From Squalus acanthias (Eukaryota): a stretch of 59,661 bases of DNA. This document shows positions 10,277 through 54,162 of the stretch, piece by piece. Location: the NCBI GenBank assembly GCA_030390025.1, contig JASTWF010000321.1, forward strand, positions 496,001 to 555,661, read 5' to 3'. The stretch's first letter is position 1. Every line of letters starts with the position of its first letter. The notes under the pieces were generated by a model that was not told the DNA's origin, ran no database searches, and saw only the letters and a list, made by a program, of their open reading frames with translations. Made by a program: the position numbers and the translations under genes.

Positions 10277-10469
10277 TGTAGGGGAGCTTTACTCTGTATC
10301 TAACCCGTGCTGTAGCTGGCCTTGGAGTGTTTGATGGGACAGTGTAGAGGGAGCTTTACTCTGTATCTAACCCGTGCTGTACCTGCCCTGGGAGTGTTTG
10401 AAGGGACAGTGTAGAGGGAGCTTTACTCTGTATCTAACCCATGCTGTACCAGGCCTGGGAGTGTTTGAT

Positions 10470-21663: not shown

Positions 21664-21957
21664 GAGGTGTGCCAAAATGCTGGTCATTTTTTTATTAAAG
21701 GCCGAGGTTCATGGTCCAACTTTTGTTTAGTGTTTTGGACATTATCTCCAGGTTGTGAGAACCAGTTATGTTATTGACTGTTTTTTTGTGTTTATTTCTA
21801 TGAGTTTGTCATGAGGAATTGACACACACAAAGTTTGTAAAATAAATAAGTTTCTGTATTCAAAATATACATGGCTGGTGGTTGGAATTATTGGTGCCTT
21901 GGCCGGCTTAGGGGTTGCGTGCTGGGTTGATTCGTGTTTGTAGCAATGGCAGGGGCC

Positions 21958-23118
21958 CTAGAAGCGGCTTGCTATTAGTCGTTGACGGACGGCCCTTGCA
22001 GTTTGACCATTGTGGGCCGCCCTCCTGCCTTGGTGCTGCTGATGATCATCGTCCTCGTCCTCTTCCTCCTCTTCCTCCTCCTCCTCTGGTGGTGCTACAA
22101 GGCCTGGTGGCATTGGCTGGGTCCTGAGGATTGCCATGTTGTGCAACATGCAGCACACGACTATGAAGTTCGAAACTTGCTCAGGCGAGTACTGCAGGGC
22201 TCCTCCGGAATGGTCCAGACAGCGGAACCGTTGTTTCAGCATGCCGATTGTGCGCTCAATAATGTTCCTGGTTGCTTGATGGCTTTCATTGTACCGCAGC
22301 TCAGCACGGGTGTTTGGCGTACGGAGCGGTGTCATCAGCCAGGTGCTCAATGCGTACCCCTTGTCCCCCAGAAGCCAACCAACTGGCTGATGCGGTGCCT
22401 CGAAAACCTCTGCCACAGTAGTCTGGCGCAGGATGAAAGCATCGTGGCAGCTGCCCGGATAGTGGGCATTGACAGCGAGTATCACCTGTCTGTGGTCACA
22501 GACCAACTGCACATTCAAGGAATGGAACCCCTTTCTGTTCCTGAATTCCTCTGCATTCTCTCGCGGAGCACGCAAAGCCACATGCGTGCAGTCAATGGCG
22601 CCCTGCACCATGGGGAAGCCTGCTACCCTCGCAAAGCCCAGAGCACGGTCACGCTGCTTGTCTGGGGTCATAGGGAAAGAGATGAAGTCTCGTCTCCTTC
22701 TGAAGAGGGCATTGGTGACCTGCCGGATGCAGCGATGCACCGCATACTGGGAGATATTGGCGAGGTCCCCAACAGCAGCTTGGAATGAGCCAGTGGCGTA
22801 GAAGTTCAAAGCCACTGTGACCTTCACTGCCACCGACAGAGACGTCCTGGACCTCAGCTGAGGCTGCAGATCTGGCTGCAGCAGGTGGCAGAGCTCAGTG
22901 ACCACCTCCTTGCTGAATCGCAGCCTTCGCAAACACAGCTCCTCGGACATATGGATGTAGGAGAGCTGTTCACGATATACCCTGGGAGGGTAAGCTCTCC
23001 TGTACATGCGCCTGATGGCCCTCCTCCGTCTGGCCATCATTGCCACTCTCTGTCTGCGTCTCAGTATCCTCCGATTCAGCTGGAGCAGGACGACGCCCCC
23101 AATCATTGCAGCCCCCAT
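21958..23118 (-). CDS. Harbinger DDE transposase, 386 aa, intact
   Basis: Same catalytic motifs as 5114-6274. About 20 amino-acid differences by manual comparison, none in the catalytic motifs. Confidence 0.95.
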   Translation of the reverse strand: MGAAMIGGVVLLQLNRRILRRRQRVAMMARRRRAIRRMYRRAYPPRVYREQLSYIHMSEELCLRRLRFSKEVVTELCHLLQPDLQPQLRSRTSLSVAVKVTVALNFYATGSFQAAVGDLANISQYAVHRCIRQVTNALFRRRRDFISFPMTPDKQRDRALGFARVAGFPMVQGAIDCTHVALRAPRENAEEFRNRKGFHSLNVQLVCDHRQVILAVNAHYPGSCHDAFILRQTTVAEVFEAPHQPVGWLLGDKGYALSTWLMTPLRTPNTRAELRYNESHQATRNIIERTIGMLKQRFRCLDHSGGALQYSPEQVSNFIVVCCMLHNMAILRTQPMPPGLVAPPEEEEEEEEEDEDDDHQQHQGRRAAHNGQTARAVRQRLIASRF

Positions 23119-26100: not shown

Positions 26101-26926
26101 AGGGATATGCCGGGCCATGAGTTTACAGATTGTGGTGGAATACAATTCTGTTGCTGCTGATGGCCCACAGCGCCTCATGGATGCCCAGTTTTGAGCTGCT
26201 AGATGTGTTCTTAATCTATCCCATTTAGCACGGTGGTAGGGCCACACAACATGATGAAGGGGTGTCCTCAGTGACTCGGTAGTACCATGATTGACCGAGC
26301 TGGCTGAATCCTGAAGGACATAGCAGCCAGACTGGTTCACGGCAGGTGGTGAGAGAACAAACACGAGCCACTACCGAGCCACACTTGGTGATGGACATTG
26401 AAGTCCCCCACCCAGAGTACATTCTGTGCACCAGCAGCCACAGTGCGCCGGATGAGGAAGGAATAAATGTTTAAGATGGTGGATGGGGAGCTGATTAAGC
26501 AGCCTGCTTTCCCCTGGATTGTGTCGAGGTTTGTGAGTGTTGTTGGAGCTGCAACCGTCCAGGCAAGTGGAGAAAATTCCATCACACTCCTGACTTGTGC
26601 CTTGTAGGGGGTGGAAAGGCTTTGGGGAGTCAGGAGGTGGTGAGTCACTTGCACAGAATACCCAGCGTCTGACTAGCTCTTGTAGCCACAGTATTTATTT
26701 GGCTGATCTTGTTAAGTTTTTGGTCAATGGTGACCCCCAGGATGTTGATGGTGGGGAATTCAATGATGGTAATACCATTGACTGTCATGGGGAGCTGGTT
26801 AGACTCTCTCTTGTTGGAGATGGTCATCGTCTGTCACTTGTGTGGCACAAATGTTACTTGCCACTTATCATCCCCAACCTGCATGTTGTCCAGGTCTTGC
26901 TGCCCGTGGACACAGACAGCCTCATT

Positions 26927-27688
26927 GGGACAAAAATTCGTCACTTGCCGGGTGAGTACGCGTTGTGTACGCACCCGTAAGCTCCTGAAGTGCCGGTTTC
27001 CTGCATGCACTGCACATGCGCGGGAAACCGGAACTTCCGGTCTCGTGAAGGGAGGGGTTCAGAGGTGAACCGCGTGCACGGGAGAGGCTGCGCGCACGCA
27101 GCGAACTTAGGTTTTTTTTCAGGTTTCTCCGGGAAGGTAAGTATGGAAGAAGCTGCGCTTTTAAAAAGGAGGCGCAGGACCTGTTTTTAACAAGGTAAGT
27201 GGTCAATTAATTACAATTAAAAAAAATTTCAACAGGTTTATCCTTTTTAGATACTTTAAAGAAAGGTAAGTTTATTTTTAGCACTCTTAAAAAGTATTTT
27301 AATTTTTTCAAAAATTTTAATTTTTGTTTAAAGTAGTTAATTTATTCAACTTATAATTATTTTAAAAATGTGATGGTTTTTTTTCAATTTATTTGAAGTT
27401 TAGGTGTTGTTTTGGGGCCGATTTCAATTAATAGATTTGAGAGGTCTTCCTGTCAAATCTATGAATGAAAGATGGTCTGCTGCCATTGGCTCTCCATGGC
27501 CCACGTGATCCCAAGGGACGCATCGCACTAACTACGCCCCTGAGATACACAAGCACTGCGCGCCGGCAGCTGCAGGAGGCCCAGGAGCTGAAGTCCCCGC
27601 GGGCCCAGAGGTCAACGGCAGGCGCGGTAGGTAGGTGCGCGCGCGGTCATTGCACCCGCGGGAAGCCAGGGAGCCTAATTTCTGGGCC
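26927..27688. mobile_element. Harbinger/Tourist-type MITE, array copy 1
   Basis: Termini GGGACAAAAATT / GGCCCAGAAATT (revcomp). Flanks ATT and AAT. The empty site GCCTCATTATCTGA is present in other units (~15797, ~35878, ~37683). Confidence 0.8.
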
Positions 27689-29582
27689 AATATCTGACGA
27701 ATTGCGAATGTAACTGTGTAACTGCTGCAGCGATGACCTGGAGCTGAGATGATTGGCCTACAATAACCACAGGCATCTTCCTTTGTGCTAGATATGACAC
27801 CATCCAGTGGAGAGTTTTCACCCGATCACCATTGACTTCAGTTTTACTGGGGCTCCTTGGTGCCACACTCGGTCAAATGCTGCCTTGATGTCAAGGACAG
27901 TCACTCTCACTTCACCTCTGGAATTCAGCTCTTTTGTCCATGTTTGGCCCAATGCTGTAATGAGGTCAGGAGTCAAGTGGCCCTGGCGGAAAGCAAACTG
28001 GGCATCGGGGAGCAGGTTATTTGTGCTTTGTTAGTGCCTCGTGATAGCATTGTCGATGGCAGCTTCCATCACTTTGCTGATAATGGAGAGATGGCTGATG
28101 GGGTGGTAACTGGCTGTTGGATTAGTCCCGCTTTTTGCGGACTGGCCATACCTGACCAATTTACCATTTTGTCGGGTAGATGCCAGTACAGGAACAGTTT
28201 GGCTAGAGGTGCAGCTAGTTCTGGAGCACAGGTCTTCAGCACTGCAGCCGGGATGTTGTCGGGGCCCATAGCCTTTGCTGTATCCAGTGCGCTCTACCGT
28301 TCTTGATATCACGCGGAGTGAAGTGAATTGGCTGGAAACTGGCTTCTGTGCTGGTTGGACCTCAGGAGGAGGCCGAGATGCATCATCCACTTGGCACTTG
28401 TGACTGAAGATGGTTGCGAAGGCTTCAGCCTTGTCTTTTGCAGCCACGTGCTGTGCTCCGCCAGCCTTCAGGATAGGAATGTTCAAGGAGCCTCCTCCTC
28501 CCGTCAGTTGTTAATTGTCCATCACCATTTCCGACTGGGTGTGACAGGACTGCAGAGCTTTGATCTGATTCATTGGGTGTGGGATCGCTTAGCTCTGTCT
28601 ATAACATGCTGCCTTCGCTGTTTAACATGCATATAGTCCTGTGTTGCAGCTTCACCAAGTTGGTTTCTGATTTTCAGGTACACCTGGTGCAGCTCCTGGC
28701 ATGCTCTTCAACACTCCTTATTGAACCAGGTGTGGTTTGATGGTAATGGTAGAATGAGGGATATGCCGGGCCATGAGTTTACAGATTATGGTGGAATACA
28801 ATTCTGTTGCTGCTGATGTCCCACAGCACCTCATTGATGCCCAGTTTTGAGCTGCTAGATGTGTTCTTAATCTATCCCATTTAGCACGGTGGTAGGGCCA
28901 CACAACATGATGAAGGGGTGTCCTCAGTGACTCGGTAGTACCATGATTGACCGAGCTGGCTGAGTCCTGAAGGACATAGCAGCCAGACTGGTTCACGGCA
29001 GGTGGTGAGAGAACAAACACGAGCCACTACCGAGCCACACTTGGTGATGGACATTGAAGTCCCCCACCCAGAGTACATTCTGTGCACCAGCAGCCACAGT
29101 GCGCCGGATGAGGAAGGGATAAATGTTTAAGATGGTGGATGGGGAGCTGATTAAGCGGCCTGCTTTCCCCTGGATTGTGTCGAGGTTTGTGAGTGTTGTT
29201 GGAGCTGCAACCGTCCAGGCAAGTGGAGAAAATTCCATCACACTCCTGACTTGTGCCTTGTAGGGGGTGGAAAGGCTTTGGGGAGTCAGGAGGTGGTGAG
29301 TCACTTGCACAGAATACCCAGCGTCTGACTAGCTCTTGTATCCACAGTATTTATTTGGCTGATCTAGTTAAGTTTTTGGTCAATGGTGACCCCCAGGATG
29401 TTGATGGTGGGGAATTCAATGATGGTAATGCCATTGACTGTCATGGGGAGCTGGTTAGACTCTCTCTTGTTGGAGATGGTCATTGTCTGTCACTTGTGTG
29501 GCACAAATGTTACTTGCCACTTATCATCCCCTACCTGAATGTTGTCCAGGTCTTGCTGCCCGTGGACACAGACAGCCTCATT

Positions 29583-30346
29583 GGGCCAAAAATTCGTCAC
29601 TTGCCGGGTGAGTACGCGCTGTGTACGCACCCGTAAGGCCTCCTGAAGTGCCGGTTTCCTGCATGCACTGCACATGCGCGGGAAACCGGAACTTCCGGTC
29701 TCGTGAAGGGAGGGGTTCAGAGGTGAACCGCGTGCACGGGAGAGGCTGCGCGCACGCAGCGAACTTAGGGTTTTTTTCAGGTTTCTCCGGGAAGGTAAGT
29801 ATGGAAGAAGCTGCGCTTTTAAAAAGGAGGCGCAGGACCTGTTTTTAACAAGGTAAGTGGTCAATTAATTACAATTAAAAAAAATTTCAACAGGTTTATC
29901 TTTTTTAGATACTTTAAAGAAAGGTAAGTTTATTTTTAGCTCTGTTAAAAAGTATTTTAATTTTTTCAAAAATTTTAATTTTTGTTTAAAGTAGTTAATT
30001 TATTCAACTTATAATTATTTTAAAAATGTGATGGTTTTTTTTCAATTTATTTGAAGTTTAGGTGTTGTTTTGGGGCCGATTTCAATTAATAGATTTGAGA
30101 GGTCTTCCTGTCAAATCTATGAATGAAAGATGGTCTGCTGCCATTGGCTCTCCATGGCCCACGTGATCCCAAGGGACGCATCGCACTAACTACGCCCCTG
30201 AGATACACAAGCACTGCGCGCCGGCAGCTGCAGGAGGCCCAGGAGCTGAAGTCCCCGTGGGCTCAGAGGTCAACGGCAGGCGCGGTAGGTAGGTGCGCGC
30301 GTGGTCATTGCACCCGCGGGAAGCCAGGGAGCCTAATTTCTGGGCC
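29583..30346. mobile_element. Harbinger/Tourist-type MITE, array copy 2
   Basis: Termini GGGCCAAAAATT / GGCCCAGAAATT; same insertion site as copy 1. Confidence 0.8.
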
Positions 30347-32240
30347 AATATCTGACTAATTGCGAATGTAACTGTGTAACTGCTGCAGCGATGACCTGGA
30401 GCTGAGATGATTGGCCTACAATAACCACAGGCATCTTCCTTTGTGCTAGATATGACACCATCCAGTGGAGAGTTTTCACCCGATCACCATTGACTTCAGT
30501 TTTACTCGGGCTCCTTGGTGCCACACTCGGTCAAATGCTGCCTTGATGTCAAGGACAGTCACTCTCACTTCACCTCTGGAATTCAGCTCTTTTGTCCATG
30601 TTTGGCCCAATGCTGTAATGAGGTCAGGAGTCAAGTGGCCCTGGCGGAAAGCAAACTGGGCATCGGGGAGCAGGTTATTTGTGCTTTGTTAGTGCCTCGT
30701 GATAGCATTGTCGATGGCAGCTTCCATCACTTTGCTGATAATGGAGAGATGGCTGATGGGGTGGTAACTGGCTGTTGGATTAGTCCCGCTTTTTGCGGAC
30801 TGGCCATACCTGACCAATTTACCATTTTGTCGGGTAGATGCCAGTACAGGAACAGTTTGGCTAGAGGTGCAGCTAGTTCTGGAGCACAGGTCTTCAGCAC
30901 TGCAGCCGGGATGTTGTCGGGGCCCATAGCCTTTGCTGTATCCAGTGCGCTCTACCGTTCTTGATATCACGTGGAGTGAAGTGAATTGGCTGGAAACTGA
31001 CTTCTGTGCTGGTTGGACCTCAGGAGCAGGCCGAGATGCATCATCCACTTGGCACTTGTGACTGAAGATGGTTGTGAAGGCTTCAGCCTTGTCTTTTGCA
31101 GCCACGTGCTGTGCTCCGCCAGCCTTCAGGATAGGAATGTTCAAGGAGCCTCCTCCTCCCGTCAGTTGTTAATTGTCCATCACCATTTCCGACTGGATGT
31201 GGCAGGACTGCAGAGCTTTGATCTGATTCATTGGGTGTGGGATCGCTTAGCTCTGTCTATAACATGCTGCCTTCGCTGTTTAACATGCATATAGTCCTGT
31301 GTTGCAGCTTCACCAAGTTGGTTTCTGATTTTCAGGTACACCTGGTGCAGCTCCTGGCATGCTCTTCAACACTCCTTATTGAACCAGGTGTGGTTTGATG
31401 GTAATGGTAGAATGAGGGATATGCCAGGCCATGAGGTTACAGATTATGGTGGAATACAATTCTGTTGCTGCTGATGGCCCACAGCGCCTCATGGATGCCC
31501 AGTTTTGAGCTGCTAGATGTGTTCTTAATCTATCCCATTTAGCACGGTGGTAGGGCCACACAACATGATGAAGTGGTGTCCTCAGTGACTCGGTAGTACC
31601 ATGATTGACCGAGCTGGCTGAGTCCTGAAGGACATAGCAGCCAGACTGGTTCACGGCAGGTGGTGAGAGAACAAACACGAGCCACTACCGAGCCACACTT
31701 GGTGATGGACATTGAAGTCCCCCACCCAGAGTACATTCTGTGCACCAGCAGCCACAGTGCGCCGGATGAGGAAGGGATAAATGTTTAAGATGGTGGATGG
31801 GGAGCTGATTAAGCGGCCTGCTTTCCCCTGGATTGTGTCGAGGTTTGTGAGTGTTGTTGGAGCTGCAACCGTCCAGGCAAGTGGAGAAAATTCCATCACA
31901 CTCCTGACTTGTGCCTTGTAGGGGGTGGAAAGGCTTTGGGGAGTCAGGAGGTGGTGAGTCACTTGCACAGAATACCCAGCGTCTGACTAGCTCTTGTATC
32001 CACAGTATTTATTTGGCTGATCTAGTTAAGTTTTTGGTCAATGGTGACCCCCAGGATGTTGATGGTGGGGAATTCAATGATGGTAATACCATTGAATGTC
32101 ATGGGGAGCTGGTTAGACTCTCTCTTGTTGGAGATGGTCATTGTCTGTCACTTGTGTGGCACAAATGTTACTTGCCACTTATCATCCCCAACCTGCATGT
32201 TGTCCAGGTCTTGCTGCCCGTGGACACAGACAGCCTCATT

Positions 32241-33004
32241 GGGCCAAAAATTCGTCACTTGCCGGGTGAGTACGCGCTGTGTACGCACCCGTAAGGCCTC
32301 CTGAAGTGCCGGTTTCCTGCATGCACTGCACATGCGCGGGAAACCGGAACTTCCGGTCTCGTGAAGGGATGGGTTCAGAGGTGAACCGCATGCACGGGAG
32401 AGGCTGCGCGCACGCAGCGAACTTAGGTTTTTTTTCAGGTTTCTCCGGGAAGGTAAGTATGGAAGAAGCTGCGCTTTTAAAAAGGAGGCGCAGGACCTGT
32501 TTTTAACAAGGTAAGTGGTCAATTAATTACAATTAAAAAAAATTTCAACAGGTTTATCTTTTTTAGATACTTTAAAGAAAGGTAAGTTTATTTTTAGCTC
32601 TGTTAAAAAGTATTTTAATTTTTTCAAAAATTTAAATTTTTGTTTAAAGTAGTTAATTTATTCAACTTATAATTATTTTAAAAATGTGATGGTTTTTTTT
32701 CAATTTATTTGAAGTTTAGGTGTTGTTTTGGGGCCGATTTCAATTCATCGATTTGAGAGGTCTTCCTGTCAAATCTATGAATGAAAGATGGTCTGCTGCC
32801 ATTGGCTCTCCATGGCCCACGTGATCCCAAGGGACGCATCGCACTAACTACGCCCCTGAGATACACAAGCACTGCGCGCCAGCAGCTGCAGGAGGCCCAG
32901 GAGCTGAAGTCCCCGTGGGCCCAGAGGTCAACGGCAGGCGCGGTAGGTAGGTGCGCGCGTGGTCATTGCACCCGTGGGAAGCCAGGGAGCCTAATTTCTG
33001 GGCC
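32241..33004. mobile_element. Harbinger/Tourist-type MITE, array copy 3
   Basis: As above, 2658 bp downstream of copy 2. Confidence 0.8.
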
Positions 33005-34793
33005 AATATCTGACTAATTGCGAATGTAACTGTGTAACTGCTGCAGCGATGACCTGGAGCTGAGATGATTGGCCTACAATAACCACAGGCATCTTCCTTT
33101 GTGCTAGATATGACACCATCCAGTGGAGAGTTTTCACCCGATCACCATTGACTTCAGTTTTACTCGGGCTCCTTGGTGCCACACTCGGTCAAATGCTGCC
33201 TTGATGTCAAGGACAGTCACTCTCACTTCACCTCTGGAATTCAGCTCTTTTGTCCATGTTTGGCCCAATGCTGTAATGAGGTCAGGAGTCAAGTGGCCCT
33301 GGCGGAAAGCAAACTGGGCATCGGGGAGCAGGTTATTTGTGCTTTGTTAGTGCCTCGTGATAGCATTGTCGATGGCAGCTTCCATCACTTTGCTGATAAT
33401 GGAGAGATGGCTGATGGGGTGGTAACTGGCTGTTGGATTAGTCCCGCTTTTTGCGGACTGGCCATACCTGACCAATTTACCATTTTGTCGGGTAGATGCC
33501 AGTACTGGAACAGTTTGACTAGAGGTGCAGCTAGTTCTGGAGCACAGGTCTTCAGCACTGCAGCCGGGATGTTGTCGGGGCCCATAGCCTTTGCTGTATC
33601 CAGTGCGCTCTACCGTTCTTGATATCACGCGGAGTGAAGTGAATTGGCTGGAAACTGGCTTCTGTGCTGGTTGGACCTCAGGAGGAGGCCGAGATGCATC
33701 ATCCACTTGGCACTTGTGACTGAAGATGGTTGCGAAGGCTTCAGCCTTGTCTTTTGCACTCACGTGCTGTGCTCCGCCAGCCTTCAGGATAGGAATGTTC
33801 AAGGAGCCTCCTCCTCCCGTCAGTTGTTAATTGTCCATCACCATTCCCGACTGGATGTGGCAGGACTGCAGAGCTTTGATCTGATTCATTGGGTGTGGGA
33901 TCGCTTAGCTCTGTCTATAACATGCTGCCTTCGCTGTTTAACATGCATATAGTCCTGTGTTGCAGCTTCACCAAGTTGGTTTCTGATTTTCAGGTACACC
34001 TGGTGCAGCTCCTGGCATGCTCTTCAACACTCCTTATTGAACCAGGTGTGGTTTGATGGTAATGGTAGAATGAGGGATATGCCGGGCCATGAGGTTACAG
34101 ATTATGGTGGAATACAATTCTGTTGCTGCTGATGGTCCACAGCACCTCATTGATGCCCAGTTTTGAGCTGCTAGATGTGTTCTTAATCTATCCCATTTAG
34201 CACGGTGGTAGTGTACAGAACATGATGAAGGGGTGTCCTCAGTGACTCGGTAGTACCATAATTAACCAATCTGGCTGAGTCCTGAAGGACATAGCAGCCA
34301 GACTGGTTCACGGCAGGTGGTGAGAGAACAAACACGAGCCACTACCGAGCCACACTTGGTGATGGACATTGAAGTCCCCCACCCAAAGTACATTCTGTGC
34401 ACCAGCAGCCACAGTGCGCCTGGTGAGGAGGGAGTAAATGTCTAAGATGGTGGATGGGGAGCTGATTAAGCGGCCTGCTTTCCCTTGGATTGTCTCGAGC
34501 TTCGTGTGTGTTGTTGGAGCTGTCACCTTCCAGGCAAGTGGAGAATATTCCATCGAACTCCTGACTTGTGCCTTGTAGAGGGTGGAAAGGCTTTGGGGAG
34601 TCAGGAGGTGCTGAGGCACTTGCGCAGAATACCCAGCGTCTGACTAGCTCTTGTAGCCACAGTATATATTGGGCCGATCTAGTTAATGTTCTGGTCAATG
34701 GTGACCCCCAGGATGTTGATGGTGGGGAATTCAACAATGGTAATGTCATTGAATGCCATGGGGAGGTGGTTAGACTCTCTCTTGTTAGAGATG

Positions 34794-35767
34794 AAAATGA
34801 GAAGTCGCACAACACCAGGTTATAGTCCAACAGATTTATTTAATTTTACAAGCTTTCGGAACAGTTCGCTCCTTCGTCAGGTAAGTTAGCAGTGAGAGAA
34901 TCTCCCAGAATTCACAATTTAAACACAGACAAAATATATTCAAATCTTTCCTACATCAAAGAGCACAGCCAAGACAATGAGATGTGTCCCAGGGGGTCCA
35001 ACGTGTCAAACCACCTGCTGGCTGCATATCCTGTCAATCTGTGTAGGTTCTTGTGTTAGTCTTTTTAAAAAAAAACACCTGGGAAGACCGGCCATGATGT
35101 CAAGTCACGTTCTGTATCGTGACATGAACCCGATATCGCGATTGAGGCCATCCTCATGAGTGCGGAACTTGGCTATCAGTTTCTGCTCTATGATTTTGCG
35201 CTGTCGTGTATCTCGAAGGCCGCCTTGGAGAACGCTTACCCGCATATCCGAGGCTGAATGCCCCTGGCTGCTGAAGTGTTCCCCGACTGGGAGGCAACCC
35301 TCCTGCCTGTCGATTGTTGCGCGGTGTCCGTTCATACGTTGTCTCAGTGTCTGCATGGTCTCGCCGATGTACCATGCTCTGGAGCATCCTTTACTGCAAC
35401 GTATCAGGTAGACAACGTTGGCCGAGTCACATGAGTATGTACCGTGTACCTGGTGGGTTGTGTCCTCACGTGTGATGATGGTATCTGTGTCCATGATTTG
35501 GCATGTCTTGCAGAGGTTGCCGTGGCAGGGTTGTGTGGTGTCTTGGTTGCTGTTCTCCTGAAAGATGGGTAATCTGCTGCGAACGATGGTACTTTTGAGG
35601 TTAGGCGGCTGCTTGAAGGCGAGTAGTGGAGGCGTGGGGATGGCCTTAGCAAGGTGTTCGTCGTCATCGATGACATGTTGAAGGCTGCGAAGAACATGGC
35701 GTAGTTTTTCCGCTCCGGGGAAGTACTGGACGACGTAGGGTACTCTGTTGGTTGTGTCCCGTGTTCG
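34794..35767 (-). mobile_element. Penelope-like element, 5'-truncated, with GIY-YIG endonuclease region
   Basis: ORF 35105-35494: NVVYLIRC...WYIGET...LRQRMNGH...PVGEHF...GLNRD. TCTTGTTAGAGATG is duplicated at 34780-34793 and 35768-35781. Confidence 0.92.
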
Positions 35768-38700
35768 TCTTGTTAGAGATGGTCATTGTCTGGCACTTGT
35801 GTGGCACAAATGTTACTTGCCACTTATCATCCCCAACCTGAATGTTGTCCAGGTCTTGCTGCATGTGGACACAGACTGCCTCATTATCTGACAAATTGTG
35901 AATGTAACTTAACACTGTATAATCAGCAGTGAACATCCCCACTTCTGAAGGTCATTAATAAAGCAATTGAAGATGTTGGGCCGAGGACACTGTCCTGAGT
36001 AACTGCTGCAGCGATGACCTGGGGCTGAGATGATTGGCCTCCAATAACCACAGGCATCTTCCTTGTGCTAGATATGACACCATCCAGTGTAGAGTTTTCC
36101 CCCGATCCCCATTGACTTCAGTTTTACTGGGGCCCATTGGTGCCACACTCGGTCAAATGCTGCCTTGATGTCGAGTACAGTCACTCTCACCTCACCTCTG
36201 GAATTCAGCCCTTTTGTCAATGTTTGGACCAAGGCTGTAATGAGGTCAGCAGCCAAGTGGTCCTGGCGGAAACCAAACTAGTCATTGGTGAGCAGGTTAT
36301 TTGTGCATTAGTGACGCTTGATAGCATTGTGGTTGACAGCTTCCATCACTTTGCTGATGTTGGAGAGATGGCTGATGGGGTGGTAACTGGCTGTTGGATT
36401 AGTCCAGCTGTTTGCGGACTGGACATACCTGTCCAATTTACCACTTTGTCGGGTAGATGCCAGTACTGGATCAGCTTGGCTAGAGGTGCAGCTAGTTCTG
36501 GAGCACAGGTCTTCAGCTCTGCAGCCGGGATGTTGCCGGGGCCCATAGCCTTTGCTGTCTCCAGTGCGCTCTACCGTTCTTGATATCACGTGGAGTGAAG
36601 CAAATTGGTTGAAGACTGGCTTCTATGATGGTGGTGACCTCAGGAGCAAGCCGAGATGCATCGTCCACTTGGCACTTGTGGCTGAAGATGGTTGTGAAGG
36701 CATCAGCCTTGTCTTTTGCACTCACATGCTGTGCTTCACCATCATCCTGTGTTGTAGCTTCACCAAGAAGGTTTCTGATTTTCAGATACACTTGGTGCAG
36801 CTCCTGGAATGCTCTTCAACACTCCTTATTGAACCAGGGCTGGTTTGATGGTAATGGTAGAATGAGGGATATGCCGGGCCATGAGGTTACAGATTATGGT
36901 GGAATACAATTCTGTTGCTGCTGATGGCCCACAGCGCCTCATGGATGCCAAGATTTGAGCTGCTAGATGGGTTCTTAATCGATCCCATTTAGCACGGTGG
37001 TAGGGCCACACAACACGATGAAGGGGTGTCTTCAGTGGCTCGGTAGTACCATGATTGATGAAGCTGGCTGAGTCCTGAAGGACATAGCTGCCAGGCTGAC
37101 TCACGGCAGGTGGTGAGAGAACAAACACGAGCCACTACTGAGCCACACTTGGTGATGGACATTGAAGTCCCCCAGCCAGAGTACATTCTGTGCCCCAGCA
37201 GCCACAGTGCGCCTGGTGAGGAGGGAGTAAATGTTTAAGATGGTGGATGGGGAGCTGATTAAGCGGCCTGCTTTCCCCTGGATTGTGTCGAGCTTCTTGA
37301 GTGTTGTTGGAGCTGCAACCGTCCAGGCAAGTGGAGAATATTCCATCGCACTCCTGACTTGTGCCTTGTAGGGGGTGGAAAGGCCTTGGGGAGTCAGGAG
37401 GTGGTGAGTCACTTGCGCAGAATACCCAGCGTCTGACTAGCTCTTGTAGCCACAGTATTTATTTGGCTGATCTAGTTAATGTTCTGGTCAATGGTGACCC
37501 CCAGGATGTTGATGGTGGGGAATTCAATGATGGTAATGCCATTGAATGTCATGGGGAGGTGGTTAGACTCTCTCCTGTTGGAGATGGTCATTGTCTGGCA
37601 CTTGTGTGGCACAAATGTTACTTGCCACTGATCATCCCCAACCTGAATGTTGTCCAGGTCTTGCTGCACGTGGACACAGACTGCCTCATTATCTGACGAA
37701 TTGTGAATGTAACTTGACACTGTGCAATCAGCAGCGAACATCCCCACTTCTGGAGGTCATTAATAAAGCAGTTGAAGATGTTGGGCCTAGGACACTGTCC
37801 TGAGTAACTGCTGCAGTGATGACCTGGGGCTGAGATGATTGGCCTCCAATAACCACAACCATCTTCCTTGTGCTAGATATGACACCATCCAGTGGAGAGT
37901 TTTCCCCCGATCACCATTGACTTCAGTTTTACTGGGGCCCCTTGGTGCCACACTCGGTCAAATGCTGCCTTGATGTCGAGGACAGTCACTCTCACATCAC
38001 CTCTGGAACTCAGCCCTTTTACATGTTTGGCCCAAGGCTGTAATGAGGTCAGCAGCCAAGTGGTCCTGGCGGAAAGCAAACTGGGCATCGGGGAGCAGGT
38101 TATTTGTGCTTTGTTAGTGCCTCTTGATAGCATTGTCGATGACAGCTTCCATCACTTTGCTGATGATGGAGAGATGGTTGATGGGGTGGTAACTGGCTGT
38201 TGGATTAGTCCAGCTTTATGCGGACTGGACATACCTGGCCAATTTACCACTTTGTCGGGTAGATTAACCAGTACTGGAACATCTTGGCTTGAGGTGCAGC
38301 TAGTTCTGGAGCACAGGTCTTCATCTCTCTAGTCGGGATGTTGTCGGTGCCCATAGCCTTTGCTGTATCCAGTGCGCTCTACCGTTCTTGATATCATGTG
38401 GAGTGAAGTGAATTGGCTGAAGACTGGCTTCTGTGATGGTGGGGACCTCAGGAAGAGGCCGAGATGCGTCATCCACTTGGCACTTGTAACTGAAGATGGT
38501 TGCGAAGGCTTCAGCCTTGTCTTTTGCACTCACGTGCTGTGCTCCGCCATCGTTGAGGATGGGTATGATCATGGAGCCTCCTCCTCTCGTTAGTTGTTTA
38601 ATTGTCCATCACCATTCACGACTGGATGTGGCAGGACTGCAGAGCTTTGATCTGATCCATTGGGTGTGGGATCGCTTAGCTCGGTCTATAGCAATGTTCC

Positions 38701-39832
38701 TGCTGTTTAACATGCATATAGTCCTGTGTTGTAGCTTCACCAAGTTGGTATCTGATTTTCATGTACACCTGGCATGCTCTTCAACACTCCTCATTGAACC
38801 AGGGTTGGTTTGATGGGAATGGTAGATGGAGGGATATATCAGCTCATGAAGTTACAGAGTGTGGTGGAATACAATTCCATTGCTGCTGATGGCCCACAGC
38901 GCCTCCTTGGTGCCCAGTTTTGAGCTGCTAGATCTCTTCTGATTCTATCCCATTTAGTACGGTGGTAGTGCCACACAACACAATGAAGGGTTGTCCTCAG
39001 TGTGAAGACGGGACTTCATCACCACAAGGACTGTGCGGTGGTTACTGCGACCAATACTGTCATGGACAGATGCATCTGCGACAGGTAGATTGTTGAGGAC
39101 AAGATCAAGTAGCTTTTTTCCTCGTGTTTGTTCTCTCACCACCTGCTATGAGCCCAGTCTGGCAGCTATCTCCTTGAGGACTTTGCCAGCTCGGTGAATA
39201 GTGGTACTACTGAGCCACTCTTGGTGATGCCCGAGCAGCCACAGTGCGCCGGATGAGGAGGGAGTAAATGTTTATGATGGTGGACGGGGGGCTGATTAAG
39301 CGGACTGCTTTCTCCTGGACTGTGTCGCGCTTCTTGAGTGTTGTTGGATCTGCAACCATCCAGGCAAGTGGAGAATATTCAATCACACTCCTGACTTGTG
39401 CCTTGTAGGTGCTAGAATGGTTTTGGGGAGTCAGGAGGTGAGTCACTTGCCGGCGAATACCCAGCCTCTGACCTGCTCTTGTATTTACGTGGCCTGGCTA
39501 GTTACTTTGCTGATGATTGAGAGTAGATTGATGGGGCAGTAATTGACCGGATTGGATTTTTCCTGCCTTTTGCGGAAAGGACATACCTGCCCAATTTTCC
39601 ACTTTATCAGGTAGAGGCCAGTACAGGAACAGCTTGGCTAGAGGTGCTGCTAGTTCTGGAGTGCAGGTCTTCAGCTCTACAGCTGTGATGTTGTTGGGGC
39701 CCCACAGCCTTTGCAGTATCCAGTGCGCTCTGACGTTTTCTGATATCAAGTGGAGTGAATTGAATTGGCTGAGGACTGGCATCTATGAGAGTGGGGACCT
39801 CAGGAGGAGGCGGCGATGGATCCACTTGGCAC

Positions 39833-46246: not shown

Positions 46247-47021
46247 TTGTTATGATCAGCATGATCCATATCTGCCTCCTCCTGAGGTCCCCACCATCAC
46301 AGAAGCCAGTCTTCAGTCAATTGATTCAATCTACGTGATATCAAGAAATGGCTGAGCGCACTGGATACAGCAAAGGCTATGGGCCCCGACAACATCCCAT
46401 CTGTCGTGCTTAAGACTTGTGCTCCAGAACTAGCCGCGCCTCTAGCCAAGCTGTTCCAGCACAGCTACAACACTGACATCTGCCTGATAAAGTGTAAAAT
46501 TTCCAAGGTGTGGACTGTCCGCAAAAAGCAGGACAAATCCAATCCGACCAATTACCGCCCCATCAGTTTACTCTCAATCATCAGCAAAGTGACGGAAGGT
46601 GTCGTTAACAGTGCTATCAAGCGGCAATTACTCACCAATAACCTGCTCACAAATGCTCAGTTTGGGTTCCGCCAGGACCACTCAGCTCCAGGTCTCATTA
46701 CAGCCTTGGTCCAAAATGGACAAAAGAGCTGAATTCCAGAGGTGAGGTGAGAGTGAGTGCCCTCGACATCAAAGCAGAATTTGACTGGTTGTGGCATCAA
46801 TGAGCCCTAGTAAAATTGAAGTCATTGGGAATCACGGGTAAAGCTTTTCATTGGCTGGAGTCATACCTAGCACAAAGGAAGATGGTTGTGGTTGTTGGAG
46901 GCCAATCATTTCAGCCCCAGCACATCACTGCAGGAGCTCCTCAGGGCAGTGTCCTAGGCCCAACCATCTTCAGCTGCTTCATCAATGACCTTCCCTCCAT
47001 CATAAGTTCAGAAATGGGGAT

Positions 47022-47236
47022 TGACGTAATAAAGACTCACTACGCACTTGAACATAAAGCAAGGCTTTAATCAACTTGTAACAAAACATGGAGGTCTAGT
47101 TAGCAGTCACTAGCTTCCTGTTTCCAGATTGTCTCTGCCCAAGGTGGGCCCATGCCTGAGTATTTATACTCCCTGGACGGCGCCCCAGCTGGCCGCCCAG
47201 TAGTACTTCCTGAGTTGTTACTTGCGATTTATGACA
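47022..47236 (-). repeat. Gypsy 3' LTR
   Basis: Identical by eye to 51316-51530. Confidence 0.95.
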
Positions 47237-47274
47237 TTCTTCCTCCCTAAAAGGTTTGGAAGTCCAGTCTTCCT

Positions 47275-50238
47275 TTAACGGACTAGGCGGACCAGAAATA
47301 GCCGTAGACGTTTAGCTCTCTGCTTGTGACCGGAAGGCACGTCTCCCCGGACCGTGTCCTGGTCCCTGGGTCGCTTGGCCCGTACCGGTAAGTCAGTAGA
47401 GTCCGCGTCATCTTGATCATCCTGTGGAGGACTGGGAATATCATGACTCCGGGTGCGGGTCCCCACAGGTGCTGAGCTGGCCTCATCCCGGGTCGTGGCT
47501 GGAGATTGTCCGGCGTCCTGGTTTCGGGTGGCCATCCTACAGGGAGCGTCCAGCTCCCTGAGTTGATCCGGTAGCGTTGCCGGCAGATCCCCCGATGTCC
47601 CAAGCGGGGCATCATTTTCATAGGGGTGCGGAGTGTTGATATCATTGTCGGGGGATCCTTCATCATTCGGGCCCGTGTGACCGGTTGGGCAGGGAGCCAG
47701 ATCTCGGAGCGAGACGGTGGTCTCCCGGCCATCAGGGTACCGTACGTGCGCATACGTGGGGTTTACCTCCGTTAACTCCACCTCGTCAACGAGAGGGTCG
47801 TTTTTGGCAGACCAGACGAACCTCCGGAGTAGCACCGGGCCTGGAGCCACCACCCATGACGGTAGAGACGTCCCACGTGTAGAGCGACGCCGGAATTTGA
47901 AGAATCGCTCATGAGGCGTGACATTAGTAGACATGGAGAGAAGAGACCTGATAGAGTGTAACACGTCGGGGAGCACCGTTTCCCACTGCTGGTCCGGTAG
48001 GTTGCGTGACCTTAGTGCCAGACGGACAGCGTTCCAGATGATGGCATTGTATCGTTCAACCTGTCCGTTACCGATTGGGTGATATGGTGTCGTCCTACTT
48101 GAGGCGATTCCCCGTTGGGAGAGATAACTTTTAAGTTCACTCGACATAAAGGAGGGACCCCGATCAGTGTGGATAAAATTGGCCGTCCCGCAAAGGGAAA
48201 AGACCTGATCGAGGCATTTAATTACCGTAGAGGTAAGCATATTAGGGCAGGGGAAGGCGAAGGGAAAGCGTGAATACTCGTCCACCATCGTAAGTAGGTA
48301 GGTGTTCCTTGTCGACGAAGGCAATGGCCCTTTAAAGTCTATGCTGAGCCTCTGCATAGGCTGCATTGCATGTATGAGTAAGCCATCTGATGGGCGAAAG
48401 AATTGTGGTTTCAATTCTGCACAAATCCTACAGGAGGAGCATGTTTTCTTTACGTCCTCGGTTGAAAATGGTAGATTTTTGGAGCGCACAAAGTGCAACA
48501 TGCGGGTCACACCAGGATGGCATAAGTCCATATGCAAATCCGCCAGAGTCGACGTTGACATTGAGGAGCAAAATGCCCGTGTGAAGGTATCTGGGGCCAC
48601 GTTCTGTTTGCCGGGTCGGTAACGGATAGTATATCCAAAGGCAGCCAGCTCCATCCTCCAGAGTTGAATTTTATTATTTTTGATTTTCGTGCGCCTCCGG
48701 TTATCCAACATGAAGGCCACAGAGCGCTGGTCAGTTATAAGCGTAAAATGACGCCGAGCAAGAAAATGACCCCATTGGCGTACAGCCTCGATGATGGCCG
48801 TAGCCTCCTTCTCGACGGGGGGGTAATGGAGCTCGCTACCCTGCAAGGTTCTGGATAGGAATGCCACGGGTCGGCCACCTTGATTCAAGGTAGCGGAGAT
48901 CGCCACCTCCGATGCATCGCATTCGACCACAAAAGGAAGATTTTCGTCAATGGAGCGAAGCGTGGCTTTCTCCAGCTGTCGTTTGAGGAGGTTGAAGGCA
49001 GAAATAGCCGTAGCTTCCAATGGAAAAGACTTCGCATGGAGCAGGGGCTGTATTTTATCGGAGAAGTGTGGTATCCATTTTGCGTAATAAGCAAACATGA
49101 CAAGTGCCCGACGAAGAGAGCCGAGGTTCGTCGGGGGAGGGAGCTCCTGAAGTGGACGAAGTCGCTCTGGGTCTGGTTTAATAACACTGTTGCCCACCCA
49201 GTAGCCAAGAATGTTCACCGATGGCACCGACTTCACCGATTTGGATTCGTTTAACGTTAAGTGGCGACGGTGGAGTACGTCAAAAAATCTCTGAAGATTG
49301 GCGTCATGCTCCTTTTGATCATGGCCGGCAATAGTGATATTGTCTAAATACGGAAAGGTATCCGTCAAGTTCTCTTGCCGGACTAGGCCATCCATGGCCC
49401 GTTGGAAGACGGCCACCCCATTGGTGACCCCGAATGGAAGGCGGCGAAACTGGAAAAGCCGACCATTGGCCTCAAAGGCCGTATACTTCTTGTCGGAGTC
49501 TTGCAGTGGCACCTGATGGTACGCGCTTTTTAAATCGAAGGTCGAGAATACCTTGTATTTGGCAAGGTTGTTGACCATGTCATCTATGCGTGGCAGCGGG
49601 TAGGCATCCAGATCGGTATATAGATTAATAGTCTGCGAATAATCGATACACAGACGGTTTTTATGTTGTTTTAAGGGATTCCTCACGATGACGACCTGAG
49701 CCCGCCAGGGAGATGAACATGGCTCGATAATATCGTCGACTAAAAGGCGAGAGATTTCCGCCTCAATAAACGCTCGATCGTCTTGGCTAAAGCGCCGCGA
49801 TTTGGTGGCTATGGGTTTACAGCGGGGGGGAAGATTGGCAAACAGGGAGGGTTCACCGAGTAAGGCCGCCGAGAGTGCACAAAACGGCACCTTAGAAATG
49901 GTAAGCTCCGGCCTTGACCCTCCAAACTCAAAAGTGATCTTCTTGTGCTGCTTCTGGAAGTCCTGTCCCAGAAGCACATCGCTGCATAAGTTTGCGAGTA
50001 CTCCGAGCCGGGTGGAGAGATACGTGCGGCCGTTGAGGATGAGGTTGACCAGACAGAAGCCAGAAGAATTGGTGGTCAGAGTCGTCAGAGCCATTGCAAT
50101 CTCCCTGTCCGAGGGATAAATGTGCAGTTTTAACCTGTTGACAGCCCGCTTACTAATGAAGCTGTCAGAGCTGCAGGAGTCGATTAGCGCGCTTAGAGTG
50201 TGCCCATTTACTGCAACCTTCGTGGCTGCATGGGACAA
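47275..50238 (-). CDS. Gypsy pol region (protease, RT, RNase H, integrase), 987 aa open
   Basis: LIDSCSS; RLCIDY, DLKSAYHQ, LPFGV, YLDN; ECDAS, EKEA, ITDQ; H..H..C..C, SIDFKGP, HTDRG, NGQVER. No chromodomain visible. Confidence 0.93.
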   Translation of the reverse strand: MSHAATKVAVNGHTLSALIDSCSSDSFISKRAVNRLKLHIYPSDREIAMALTTLTTNSSGFCLVNLILNGRTYLSTRLGVLANLCSDVLLGQDFQKQHKKITFEFGGSRPELTISKVPFCALSAALLGEPSLFANLPPRCKPIATKSRRFSQDDRAFIEAEISRLLVDDIIEPCSSPWRAQVVIVRNPLKQHKNRLCIDYSQTINLYTDLDAYPLPRIDDMVNNLAKYKVFSTFDLKSAYHQVPLQDSDKKYTAFEANGRLFQFRRLPFGVTNGVAVFQRAMDGLVRQENLTDTFPYLDNITIAGHDQKEHDANLQRFFDVLHRRHLTLNESKSVKSVPSVNILGYWVGNSVIKPDPERLRPLQELPPPTNLGSLRRALVMFAYYAKWIPHFSDKIQPLLHAKSFPLEATAISAFNLLKRQLEKATLRSIDENLPFVVECDASEVAISATLNQGGRPVAFLSRTLQGSELHYPPVEKEATAIIEAVRQWGHFLARRHFTLITDQRSVAFMLDNRRRTKIKNNKIQLWRMELAAFGYTIRYRPGKQNVAPDTFTRAFCSSMSTSTLADLHMDLCHPGVTRMLHFVRSKNLPFSTEDVKKTCSSCRICAELKPQFFRPSDGLLIHAMQPMQRLSIDFKGPLPSSTRNTYLLTMVDEYSRFPFAFPCPNMLTSTVIKCLDQVFSLCGTANFIHTDRGPSFMSSELKSYLSQRGIASSRTTPYHPIGNGQVERYNAIIWNAVRLALRSRNLPDQQWETVLPDVLHSIRSLLSMSTNVTPHERFFKFRRRSTRGTSLPSWVVAPGPVLLRRFVWSAKNDPLVDEVELTEVNPTYAHVRYPDGRETTVSLRDLAPCPTGHTGPNDEGSPDNDINTPHPYENDAPLGTSGDLPATLPDQLRELDAPCRMATRNQDAGQSPATTRDEASSAPVGTRTRSHDIPSPPQDDQDDADSTDLPVRAKRPRDQDTVRGDVPSGHKQRAKRLRLFLVRLVR

Positions 50239-50241
50239 ACT

Positions 50242-51215
50242 TTAGGGAAAAACAGCCGTGATGGGAGGAGGGGCAATTTTCCCTTCGGCAACTGTAGCCT
50301 TAACAGTAGTTCTTGGGGGAGGAGCAGCTCCATAGATAGCAGCTGTGAAGCTAACAGGAGCTCTCGACCGGTATACTTTAGAGGAGCGGCCTTTCTTGTG
50401 AGCAAAGGCCCGTGACTGGCATACCTTGGAAAAGTGTCCTTTCTTGCTGCAATGATTGCAGGTCACATTACGAGCCGGGCAAAATTTTCTGTGATGGCAC
50501 GCCCCTCCACAAAAGAAACACTTTCTTCCTGATTGCCAGGATGCTGCTAGGGCGGGGTCGTCATCAGCGAAGGCCTCTAGGGTAGGGTCGTCGTCCGTTA
50601 GAGTAGAGTCAACATCAGTGGGGGCATCCGCCCGAGACCTACCGAAAGACTCATTAAAGGAGATAGCCGCCGCCCGTGCACGTGGTGGGAGATAAGTGTC
50701 TGCACTTTTCTTGGCCAAGTCCAAGGAACACGCCTGGTCATAAGCAGCCCGTAAATTGAGGGTTTTATTTTCCAGCAGGCGCTGACGTATAAAAGGGGAC
50801 GCGATTCCATTGATAAAGGAATCGCGGATTAGTTCCTCTTGATACTGTTCAGCTGTAACTGCTTTAAGGTTACAATCCTTGCTGAGCCTGCGAAGTTTCT
50901 GGAGAAATTCATCGAGTGATTCCCAGGCTGCTGCCGAGTTGTGGCCAGTAGGTGTCGAGCAAATATTTCATTTGGGGACTTGACATATAGCTGCTGTAAG
51001 ATTTCGATAGCCGTGTCATAGACTATACAGTCCTCAATATAATCATACACATGAGGAGACACGTAGTTGATAAGCATTCGTAACTTATTTGGGACATCCG
51101 CCCCACATTCTTCAAGAAAGTTGCTAAAGGTACGAAACCAATGCTTCCATACCTTCGCTGCCGCAGGTGCATTCGGGTCCAGGTCGAGACGAGCGGGTCT
51201 AAGGAGTTTCTCCAT
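50242..51215 (-). pseudogene. Gypsy gag with two CCHC zinc knuckles; 1-bp frameshift at ~50922-50924; ends at a TAA in frame with pol
   Basis: MEKLLRPARLDLDP...WKHWFRTF. Adding one G restores QQPGESLDEFLQKLR...IRQRLLE and runs into CFFCGGACHHRKFC and CNHCSKKGHFSKVC. Confidence 0.85.
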
Positions 51216-51315
51216 GATGGATAAGTTTCTTGCCCTAGTTCCCTTCTGTGGTTCGAGTTGCAGCTGGTTGTTCCGAATCACCCAAAGCGTGGAGACGATA
51301 TCAAGTTGATTAAAT

Positions 51316-51530
51316 TGACGTAATAAAGACTCACTACGCACTTGAACATAAAGCAAGGCTTTAATCAACTTGTAACAAAACATGGAGGTCTAGTTAGCAG
51401 TCACTAGCTTCCTGTTTCCAGATTGTCTCTGCCCAAGGTGGGCCCATGCCTGAGTATTTATACTCCCTGGACGGCGCCCCAGCTGGCCGCCCAGTAGTAC
51501 TTCCTGAGTTGTTACTTGCGATTTATGACA
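51316..51530 (-). repeat. Gypsy 5' LTR with TATA box and poly(A) signal
   Basis: Minus-strand TATAAATA at 51455-51462 and ATTAAA at 51360-51365. Confidence 0.95.
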
Positions 51531-52083
51531 GGGATGTTCGCTGATGATTGCACAGTGTTCAGTTCCATTCGCAACTTAAGTGGCAAGTAACATTCACGCC
51601 ACACAAGTGCCAGGCAATGACCATCCCCAACAAGAGAAAGTCTAACCACCTCCCCTTGACATTCAATGGCATTACCATCGTCAAATCCCCCACCATCAAC
51701 ATCCTGGGGGTCACCATTGACCAGAAACTTAACTGGACCAGCCACATAAATACTGTGGCAACAAGAGCAGGTCAGAGGCTGGGTATTCTGTGGCGAGTGT
51801 CTCATCTCCTGACTCCCCAAAGACTTTCCACCATCTACAAGGCACAAGTCAGGAGTGTGATGGAATACTTTCCACTTGTCTGGATGAGTGCAGCTCCAGT
51901 AACACTCAAAAAGCTCAACACCATCCAAGACAAAGCAGCCCGCTTGATTGGCACCTCATCCACCACCTTAAACATTCACTCCCTCCACCACCTTAAACAT
52001 TCACTCTCTCCACCACCGGCGCACCGTGGCTGAAGTGTGTACCATCTACAAGATGCACTGCAGCAACTCGACAAGGCTTCTTT

Positions 52084-54162
52084 AGAACATAGAACATAGA
52101 ACAGTACAGCACAGTACAGGCCCTTCGGCCCTCGATGTTGTGCCGAGCATTGTCCGAGACCAAGATCAAGCTATCACACTCCCTATCACTCTGGTGTGCT
52201 CCATGTGCTTATCCAATAACCGCTTGAAAGTTCCTAAAGTGTCCGACTCCACTATCACAGCAGACAGTCCATTCCACACCCCAACCACTCTCTGAGTAAA
52301 GAATCTACCTCGGACATCCCTTCTATATCTCCCCCATGCACCTTATAGTTATGCCCCCTTGTAACAGCTGCCTCTACCCGAGGAAATAGTCTCTGAACAT
52401 CCACTCTATCTATCCCCCTCATCATCTTATAAACCTCTATTAAGTCGCCTCTCATCCTCCTCCGCTCTAACGAGAAAAGCCCCAACTCCCTCAATCTTTC
52501 CTCATAAGACCTCCCCCCCAAACCAGGCAGCATCCTGGTAAATCTCCTTTGCACTCTTTCCAATGCTTCCACGTCCTTCCTATAGTGAGGTGACCAGAAC
52601 TGCACACAATATTCCAAATGTGGTCTCACCAAGGTCCTGTACAGTTGCAGCATAACCTCACGGTTCTTAAACTCAAACCCTCTGTTAATAAACGCCAACA
52701 CACCATAGGCCTTCTTTACTGCTCTATCCACTTGAGTGGCAACCTTCAGAGATCTGTGGATATGAACCCCCAGATCCCTCTGTTCCTCCACGTTCCTCAG
52801 AACCCTGCCGTTGACCTGTAATCCTTATTCAAATTTGCCCTACCAAAATGAATCACCTCGCACTTATCAGGGTTAAATTCCATCTGCCATTTTTCGGCCC
52901 AGCTCTGCATCCTATCAATGTCTCTTTGCAGCCTACAACTGCCCTCCACCTCATCCACTACTCCACCAATCTTGGTGTCATCAGCAAATTTACTGATCCA
53001 CCCTTCAGTCCCCTCCTCCAAGTCATTGATAAAAATCACAAACAGCAGAGGACCCAGCACCGACCCCTGTGGCACACCGCTGGTAACTGGTCTCCAGTCC
53101 GAAAATGTTCCATCCACCACCACCCTCTGCCTTCTATGAGATAGCCAGTTACTTATCCAATCGGCCAAATTTCCCTCTATCCCACAACTCCTTACTTTCT
53201 TCATGAGACGACCATGGGGAACCTTATCAAACGCCTTACTAAAATCCATGTATACGACATCAACTGCTCTACCTTCATCTACACACTTAGTTACCTCCTC
53301 AAAGAATTCAATCAAATTTGTTAGGCAAGACTTACCCTTCACGAATCCGTGTTGACTATCCCTGATTAAGTTGCCCCTTTCCAAATGGTCATAAATCCTA
53401 TCCCTCAGGACCTTTTCCATTATCTTACCAACCACCGAAGTAAGACTAACCGGCCTATAATTACCAGGGTCATTCCTATTTCCTTTCTTGAAGAGAGGAA
53501 CAACATTCGCCACTCTCCAGTCCTCTGGCACCATTCCCGTGGACAGTGAGGACCCAAAGATCAAAGCCAGAGGCTCTGCAATCTCCTCCCTTGCCTCCCA
53601 AAGAATCCTAGGATATATCCCATCTGGCCCAAGGGACTTATCGACCCTCAGGTTCTTCAAAATTGCCTAAAACATCTTCCCTCAGAACATCTACCACCTC
53701 CAGCCTATCCACCTTTATCACACTCTCATCCTCAAGAACATGGCCCCTCTCCTCGGTGAACACTGACAAAAAGTATTCATTCATCACCTCTCCTATCTCT
53801 TCTGACTCCATGCACAAGTTCCCACTACTGTCCTTGACCGGCCCTACCCTCACCCTGGTCATTCTTTTATTTCTCACATAAGAGTAAAAGGCCTTGGGGT
53901 TTTTCTTGATCCGACCCGCCAAGGACTTCTCATGCCCCCTCCTAGCTCTCCTAAGCTCTTTTTTTAGCTCATTCCTTGCTACCTTGTACCCCTCAATCGA
54001 CCAACTGAACCTTGTTTTCTCATCCTTACATACGCTTCCTTTTTCCTCTTGACTAGACATTCAACCTCTTTTGTGAACCATGGTTCTCTCACTCGGCCAT
54101 TTCCTCCCTGCCTGACAGGGACATACCTATCAAGGACACGCAGTAATTGCTCCATGAAAAAG
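52084..54162 (-). mobile_element. CR1 LINE, 2.1 kb, frameshifted RT region
   Basis: ORFs 53638-54060, 52797-53660 ([18 protein letters not shown]) and 52255-52791. (TTCTATG)n tail. CTTT duplicated at 52080-52083 and 54163-54166. Confidence 0.93.

Follow-up and report, generated by a model that had tools for sequence, protein, structure and literature searches.

A lineage of animal Ty3/gypsy elements that lacks a chromodomain probably uses its own RNA, and no tRNA, as the primer for minus-strand reverse transcription; judging from the sequences, we put the probability of this reading at roughly three in four. The focal member lies in the window (the whole stretch of DNA analysed here, 59,661 nucleotides from Squalus acanthias). 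Its primer-binding site (PBS) pairs with a stretch inside its own LTR, and this PBS-LTR duplex is real, lineage-wide and covarying. Priming by a tRNA is argued against because the two arms change together, because the PBS arm sits one base after the CA that ends the LTR, and because none of the arms begins with TGG. To our knowledge, self-priming has been proven experimentally only in Tf1, and it counts as a hallmark of the Tf1/sushi chromoviruses. The best reading of the present case is a known mechanism, new in a distinct lineage without a chromodomain.

If this is true, the existence of a separate animal lineage that is widespread, and that numbers thousands of young copies in one large genome, would point to a further origin of tRNA-free priming or to a greater age for it. 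The lineage also bears on the proposal that hairpin priming preceded tRNA priming, as put forward in the excerpted text of PMC3601003. Fragments from the 3' ends of tRNAs silence tRNA-primed elements (PMC7472051, in excerpt); self-primed elements would lack the target of such fragments and could escape them. Annotation that requires a tRNA PBS misses elements of this kind. Lastly, covariation gives an exact predicted cut site together with a set of conserved bases, which makes the mechanism directly testable.

The focal element

The element occupies 4509 bp on the minus strand (window 51530-47022) and has the features of Ty3/gypsy elements, that is, TG...CA LTRs, a target-site duplication (TSD), a polypurine tract and the domain order protease, RT, RNase H, integrase (Table 1). 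Entries of the Ty3 enzyme are the best PDB match of its Pol, and no Pfam family was found in the two gag pieces of this copy. With identical 215-bp LTRs and a 5-bp TSD, the element is young.

Table 1. Features of the focal element, with positions in the window
Feature	Position	Strand	Basis
5' LTR, TG...CA, 215 bp	51316-51530	-	sequence identical to 3' LTR
3' LTR, 215 bp	47022-47236	-	LTR comparison
Target-site duplication, 5' copy, 5 bp	51531-51535	-	
Target-site duplication, 3' copy, 5 bp	47017-47021	-	
Putative TATA-like box within a short inverted repeat	51455-51462	-	sequence
Partner arm (putative self-primer); 3' end is the ATTAAA hexamer (51365-51360); invariant G at 51369	51360-51372	-	
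Small predicted hairpin right after the inferred cut site; weak in the focal family, stronger in most relatives	51341-51357	-	
Predicted U5 hairpin adjoining the LTR end	51318-51339	-	
Spacer of one base between LTR end and PBS	51315	-	
PBS, 13 nt, complements the partner arm	51302-51314	-	
gag, two tandem CCHC knuckles; frameshift near 50.9 kb and stop at the gag-pol junction in the focal copy	50242-51215	-	
pol: protease, RT (YLDN), RNase H, integrase; without chromodomain	47275-50241	-	
Polypurine tract, abuts the 3' LTR	47237-47248	-	

A covarying duplex between PBS and LTR

A sequence-only reading of the window had reported a 13-nt tract complementary to the element's own LTR, covering the ATTAAA poly(A) signal, where a tRNA-type PBS would be expected. 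Both parts of this description hold. The 13-mer (51314-51302) is a 100% complement of LTR positions 51372-51360, with 45 nt between the arms; a single A (51315) separates the terminal CA of the LTR from the PBS, and no TGG follows, either here or at any of 32 junctions in the lineage. The PBS arm also complements the copy of its partner in the 3' LTR. A perfect 13-nt complement has a naive chance expectation of about 2e-5, and the fold of the 166-nt region is unexceptional (z -1.23). Since the regional fold alone is unremarkable, the evidence for pairing lies in the position of the arms and in their conservation across the lineage.

The same reading had proposed a comparison of relatives as its check, and this comparison shows that the arms covary across the lineage, pairing being kept by compensatory change. 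The junction set holds 32 sequences, of which 29 are non-redundant; 16 of the 32 (those outside the 20-element set described below) were chosen after an arm had been seen, and, owing to shared descent among the junctions, the counts do not represent independent events, nor is relatedness modelled in the shuffle controls. At PBS positions 1-12, 26-29 of the 29 non-redundant junctions form a Watson-Crick pair. There is more pairing than under column permutation at positions 4-9 and 11-16 (p <= 0.003) and no more than by chance from position 17 on; positions 1-3 and 10 vary little or not at all and carry no covariation signal. A separate MAFFT alignment of 15 junctions has changes on both sides in 11 of 16 pairs; none of 500 shuffles reached its score, and its pairing stands at 91%, against 24-47% in slid registers. 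RNAalifold recovers the same 13-bp helix. At the level of single elements, the near-identical sisters L065 and L068 differ by a double change, and the varied arms sit on many separate branches of a FastTree phylogeny with 35 rows.

The register is also constant. The arm starts one base past the CA of the LTR in all 29 non-redundant junctions, and the loop varies between 20 and 86 nt. Because a primer site must keep a set distance from the LTR, the fixed spacing of arm and LTR, next to a loop that varies fourfold, fits a primer site. Conserved bases are an invariant G ten bases away from the partner's 3' end, a terminal AAA and, directly after it, RCC. A stem of at least 4 bp begins at the first base after the partner in 21/29 junctions, against 8.3 expected (it has only 2 bp in the focal family); the free energy of the first 26 nt after the partner falls below the shuffle mean in 18/29, which is a weak test.

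The pairing of each PBS with its own LTR also bears on a different kind of primer, namely a host tRNA half, an internal tRNA fragment or another small host RNA, with the LTR match being secondary. Half-tRNA priming is described for several Ty1/copia lineages (PMC6317226, in excerpt), and an 11-nt core is common to the three host-genome families and some other relatives. Yet each of many PBS sequences tracks its own LTR: 11-12 of 12 positions pair in 27 of 29 self comparisons, as against 103 of 812 cross-family ones. Moreover, the primer would end in AAA and not in CCA, an Rfam search over 51150-51560 gave no match at E values up to 5, and the excerpted plant survey reports half-tRNA priming for copia elements only (PMC6317226). 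No tRNA genes were found in the window. Taken together, a host RNA is a highly improbable primer.

How general the arm is among relatives

A search for RT-RNase H homologues yielded 1436 sequences, and the named sources among the best 120 of these are prawns, mantis shrimp, a coral, a copepod, a nematode, a tunicate, a mussel and two cartilaginous fish. With a 56-sequence alignment as query, we collected the best 80 of 543 metagenome loci and 9 loci in genome contigs, and took two further families from the host genome. A terminal repeat was present in 22 of the 80 metagenome loci. The 16 with a settable LTR end were used (that of L086 was set from a contig-end overlap), and six were omitted: three were circular overlaps, in two a contig end truncated the 3' copy, and one had a duplicated junction. 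The 20-element test set consists of these 16 loci, the focal element and three host-genome elements.

All 20 elements with a defined LTR end carry a perfect arm of 8-17 nt that starts no more than 3 nt from the LTR end. The arm is at least 11 nt long in 19/20, against a maximum of 9 nt in 240 downstream control windows, and the shortest one (8 nt, in L111) belongs to 14 pairs around one mismatch. Unrepaired mismatches are present in some young copies (L063, L064 and L111).

Of fifteen further loci that have 60 nt or more ahead of gag, 10 gave an arm, including all six omitted earlier, and five did not (L042, L050, L071, L078 and L079). In L050 the arm appears when both contig ends are read, and L071, L078 and L079 look truncated or degraded. 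The remaining locus, L042 (positions 1-119), is a close relative (72% in RT, with a YLDD motif) in which no arm or LTR is recognizable in the 119 nt before gag; it is possibly an exception or a truncated copy. The junction of L054 lies at a contig end. For the loci in genome contigs, 14-nt arms were found in 4/9, the other five having no readable junction. No relatives were found in viral contigs. Loci L135-L143 are eukaryote-type Gypsy elements in contigs filed as bacterial genomes, which are most likely host contamination.

A proposed route of self-priming and its alternatives

In the focal element and across its lineage, an LTR stretch ending in AAA can pair with the 11-16 nt that start one base past the LTR end. 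We propose that the RNase H of the element, whose acidic residues are invariant in 56 sequences, would then cut just 3' of the paired stretch, between AAA and RCC, as expected from Tf1. This cut would leave a 3'-OH at the edge of the PBS, facing U5, from which RT would extend over U5 and the rest of R (44 nt in the focal element). The 15-25 nt from the cut to the expected poly(A) site would let the cDNA jump to the 3' end. By analogy with Tf1, we infer both RNase H cleavage and priming for this lineage. In most families the primer would also include the poly(A) hexamer, so that pairing may, as a side benefit, keep this signal's 5' copy hidden.

Hiding the signal was one of the roles that the sequence-only reading had suggested for the pairing, and as the sole role it has lost ground. 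The idea is that the duplex only hides the poly(A) signal of the 5' LTR and that the primer is something else. Retroviral poly(A) hairpins are a precedent for hiding a 5' poly(A) signal, the partner ends in AATAAA or ATTAAA in 18/29 junctions, and the PBS arm adjoins the 5' LTR only, which would make the effect specific to the 5' copy. However, the pairing is also found where it would hide nothing of the kind: in L043 and L045 a canonical hexamer is missing from the partner and instead lies 5 and 26 nt downstream, outside the duplex, and the pairing is complete in a further five families (L044, L062, L070, L086 and L093) that lack a canonical hexamer. With two families that have the hexamer outside the duplex and five that pair without one, masking is not the shared purpose. 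Nor does masking call for a constant one-base spacing between arm and LTR end, and with masking alone the element has no primer site, given that TGG is absent from the junctions. We thus hold masking as the whole function to be unlikely; it may operate alongside priming.

Self-priming from the paired LTR stretch has a further competitor in the partner copy of the 3' LTR. The 3' end of the element's own RNA, or of a second packaged RNA, would be trimmed after AAA and annealed to the PBS. An identical partner is present in the 3' LTR and is always transcribed there, and such a primer would work even with the start site elsewhere. On the other hand, the local hairpin should form first during transcription, and a cut in the 3' LTR loses the R overlap required for strand transfer on that RNA. 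We know of no precedent for priming by a 3'-LTR copy, and consider it decidedly unlikely here.

Where the RNA starts

For self-priming from the 5' LTR, we lean slightly towards an RNA that starts at the partner or a few bases before it, which would give a short Tf1-type primer of 11-16 nt at the cap end. The sequence-only reading took the partner to lie probably away from the cap site. The partner begins in an initiator-like context, and for this reason a Tf1-type start at the partner appears at least as likely as a start away from it. This context is T-rich and then reads (A/T)G(T/C), a combination that resembles the initiator consensus. The limit of covariation at 16 nt fits a short primer copied into the PBS, as reportedly happens in Tf1, and could instead be the footprint of RT.

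A start some 60 nt upstream of the partner, with a longer leader as primer, is a tentative second option. The TATA-like box of the focal element (51462-51455) starts 90 nt upstream of the partner. In four host-genome junctions such a box lies 75-93 nt upstream of the invariant G, and none is found at about -30. The 25 non-host junctions have no TATA at a fixed distance, which speaks for a start at the partner: it is present at -25 to -35 in none of them and at scattered distances in five. A fuller version of the upstream start would have self-priming arise independently outside the chromoviruses: the RNA would start about 60 nt upstream, and a capped, folded leader of about 70 nt, the size of a tRNA, would be cut out as primer for a YxDN RT. 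With the cut falling exactly after the poly(A) hexamer, one duplex would both make the primer and remove the 5' poly(A) signal. As a whole we regard this version as doubtful.

The conserved AG before the core of the partner could be read as a splice acceptor; this is disfavoured, as TG stands there in 7/29 junctions. In the host-genome families (L129, L125 and L133; window 51455-51462) the TATA-like box occupies the centre of an inverted repeat, with arms of about 11 bp in family B and 6 bp in family A; the LTRs of the two families are otherwise unlike.

Copies of the focal family in the host genome

The 3.7-Gb genome contains 3189 intact junctions with the focal PBS, from which it follows that the family replicates while carrying this PBS. 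Its best 30 matches in the genome have 99-100% identity and 0-4 LTR-LTR differences each (one with an indel), and their 13-nt PBS is unchanged in 29/30, with a single change in the other. Many sister copies hold an open frame of about 1315 codons; the focal copy is broken in gag.

Copying of the primer into the PBS was examined with mutants at three positions, against the baseline of 3189 intact genomic junctions. Position 7 gave 14 partner-only mutants, 21 PBS-only mutants and 1 double mutant, which is compensatory (about 0.09 doubles expected by chance) but, as a single event, too little to show such copying. Double mutants were absent at positions 5 and 6, and one off-diagonal control also gave 0.

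Some copies have unusual arrangements. Two of them, L002 and L003 (G000:C741 and C2462), have the same flanks and TSD as the focal insertion; the region was thus duplicated after insertion or assembled more than once. Head-to-tail arrays are also present: in L127/L128 (G000:C19) the middle LTR is shared and is followed by PBS and gag, and at G000:C1:566513-575072 three junctions are spaced 4247 bp apart.

Placement of the lineage and comparison with known systems

The absence of a visible chromodomain, remarked on in the sequence-only reading, extends beyond the focal Pol: none was found in 20/20 full-length relatives, and none appears among the precomputed Pfam domains of 120 homologues. Because it is absent from all 20 relatives, the lineage, which on its sequences appears to act like Tf1, should not be filed with the chromoviruses. 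The same 20 relatives gave no match to the SH3 domain of Tf2, and the 23 scanned outgroup proteins have no chromodomain either. In an RT tree built without a named chromovirus reference, the lineage clusters together, separate from two distant Gypsy RTs. RT identity is at least 36-37% for the lineage, against at most 34% for multi-domain outsiders. Cluster look-ups returned no clade names for it.

The RT motif (focal copy at about 49340-49351) is YxDN in 91 of the best 120 homologues and YLDD in 11, with 18 unmatched, and the YxDN and YxDD forms are intermixed on the RT tree. Since the focal family is young and abundant, its YxDN enzyme evidently works. A full-text search for YLDN together with retrotransposon returned 0 papers.

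As to its name, a first lead is that the lineage may be the Cigr-1 clade or lie near Mag. The Cigr-1 clade ('Gypsy-Cigr', from Ciona intestinalis) resembles the lineage in size and in having a single gag-pol frame, which in Cigr-1 runs to about 1200 codons. The nearest Atlas clusters are K02A2.6-like, which we take to be linked to Mag. The Cigr-1 clade has been reported in molluscs (PMC6238403, in excerpt). The name 'Selgy', considered for a self-priming Gypsy group, is wrong; it denotes a Selaginella lineage.

The mechanism of self-priming is described for Tf1 (PMC7175516), and self-priming for Tf1/sushi elements including vertebrate members (PMC4600332, PMC5341516), each source being used in excerpt. 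On these partial accounts, Tf1 and Tf2 of Schizosaccharomyces pombe, Tj1 and Tf1/sushi are like the present lineage in that the PBS by the 5' LTR complements the element's own LTR and there is no tRNA site (PMC7175516, PMC4600332, PMC5341516). According to the same excerpts, Tf1/sushi elements share with it a core duplex of about 11 nt, RNase H and structured RNA between primer and PBS. Unlike them, the lineage has no chromodomain, two tandem CCHC knuckles and mostly a YxDN RT; its duplex is often 13-16 nt, and its putative primer mostly has the poly(A) hexamer as its 3' end and lies only 20-86 nt from the end of the LTR. In Tf1 the first ~11 nt of the transcript serve as primer; the putative primer of the lineage is defined by its pairing with the PBS.

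Other elements offer partial parallels. In plants, self-priming has been predicted for Tcn1 (gypsy) and for TAR, Houba and Osr-1 (copia) from a PBS-LTR complementarity of at least 10 nt lying 0-5 nt from the LTR end (PMC6317226, in excerpt). The lineage shows the features used there, that is, a PBS of at least 10 nt, 0-5 nt from the LTR end and complementary to its own LTR. Tcn1 and TAR were recognized in the same way but belong to other hosts and lineages, Tcn1 being related to Tf1/sushi and TAR being copia. The Conserved Hairpin Site of the fungal GalEa elements and the bivalve biv-TRIM resemble the lineage in that they lack a tRNA PBS and carry a hairpin next to the 5' LTR; unlike in the lineage, both of their arms are internal, and GalEa, a copia element, is without an LTR partner in the excerpted accounts (PMC5445492, PMC6934838). 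A full-text literature search found no report of self-priming in the lineage or of a primer with the poly(A) hexamer at its end; its scope did not extend to Repbase, Butler 2001, Lin and Levin 1997 or the Cigr-1 paper, and an earlier mention is quite possible.

Surroundings of the element in the window

Translations reveal LINE-type RT fragments on both sides of the element (46325-46732 and 51548-52033), so an older LINE copy was apparently the target of the insertion. A further LINE fragment is found at 52255-53666. Two copies of a Harbinger/PIF-like gene pair are found at 2839-6346 and 19715-23190; the pair encodes a Myb/SANT protein, scanned in both copies, and a DDE_Tnp_4 transposase, scanned in the first. 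At about 25240-39400 and at 9629-13257 the window contains a tandem array, its unit about 2657 bp long, together with clusters of a 67-bp repeat.
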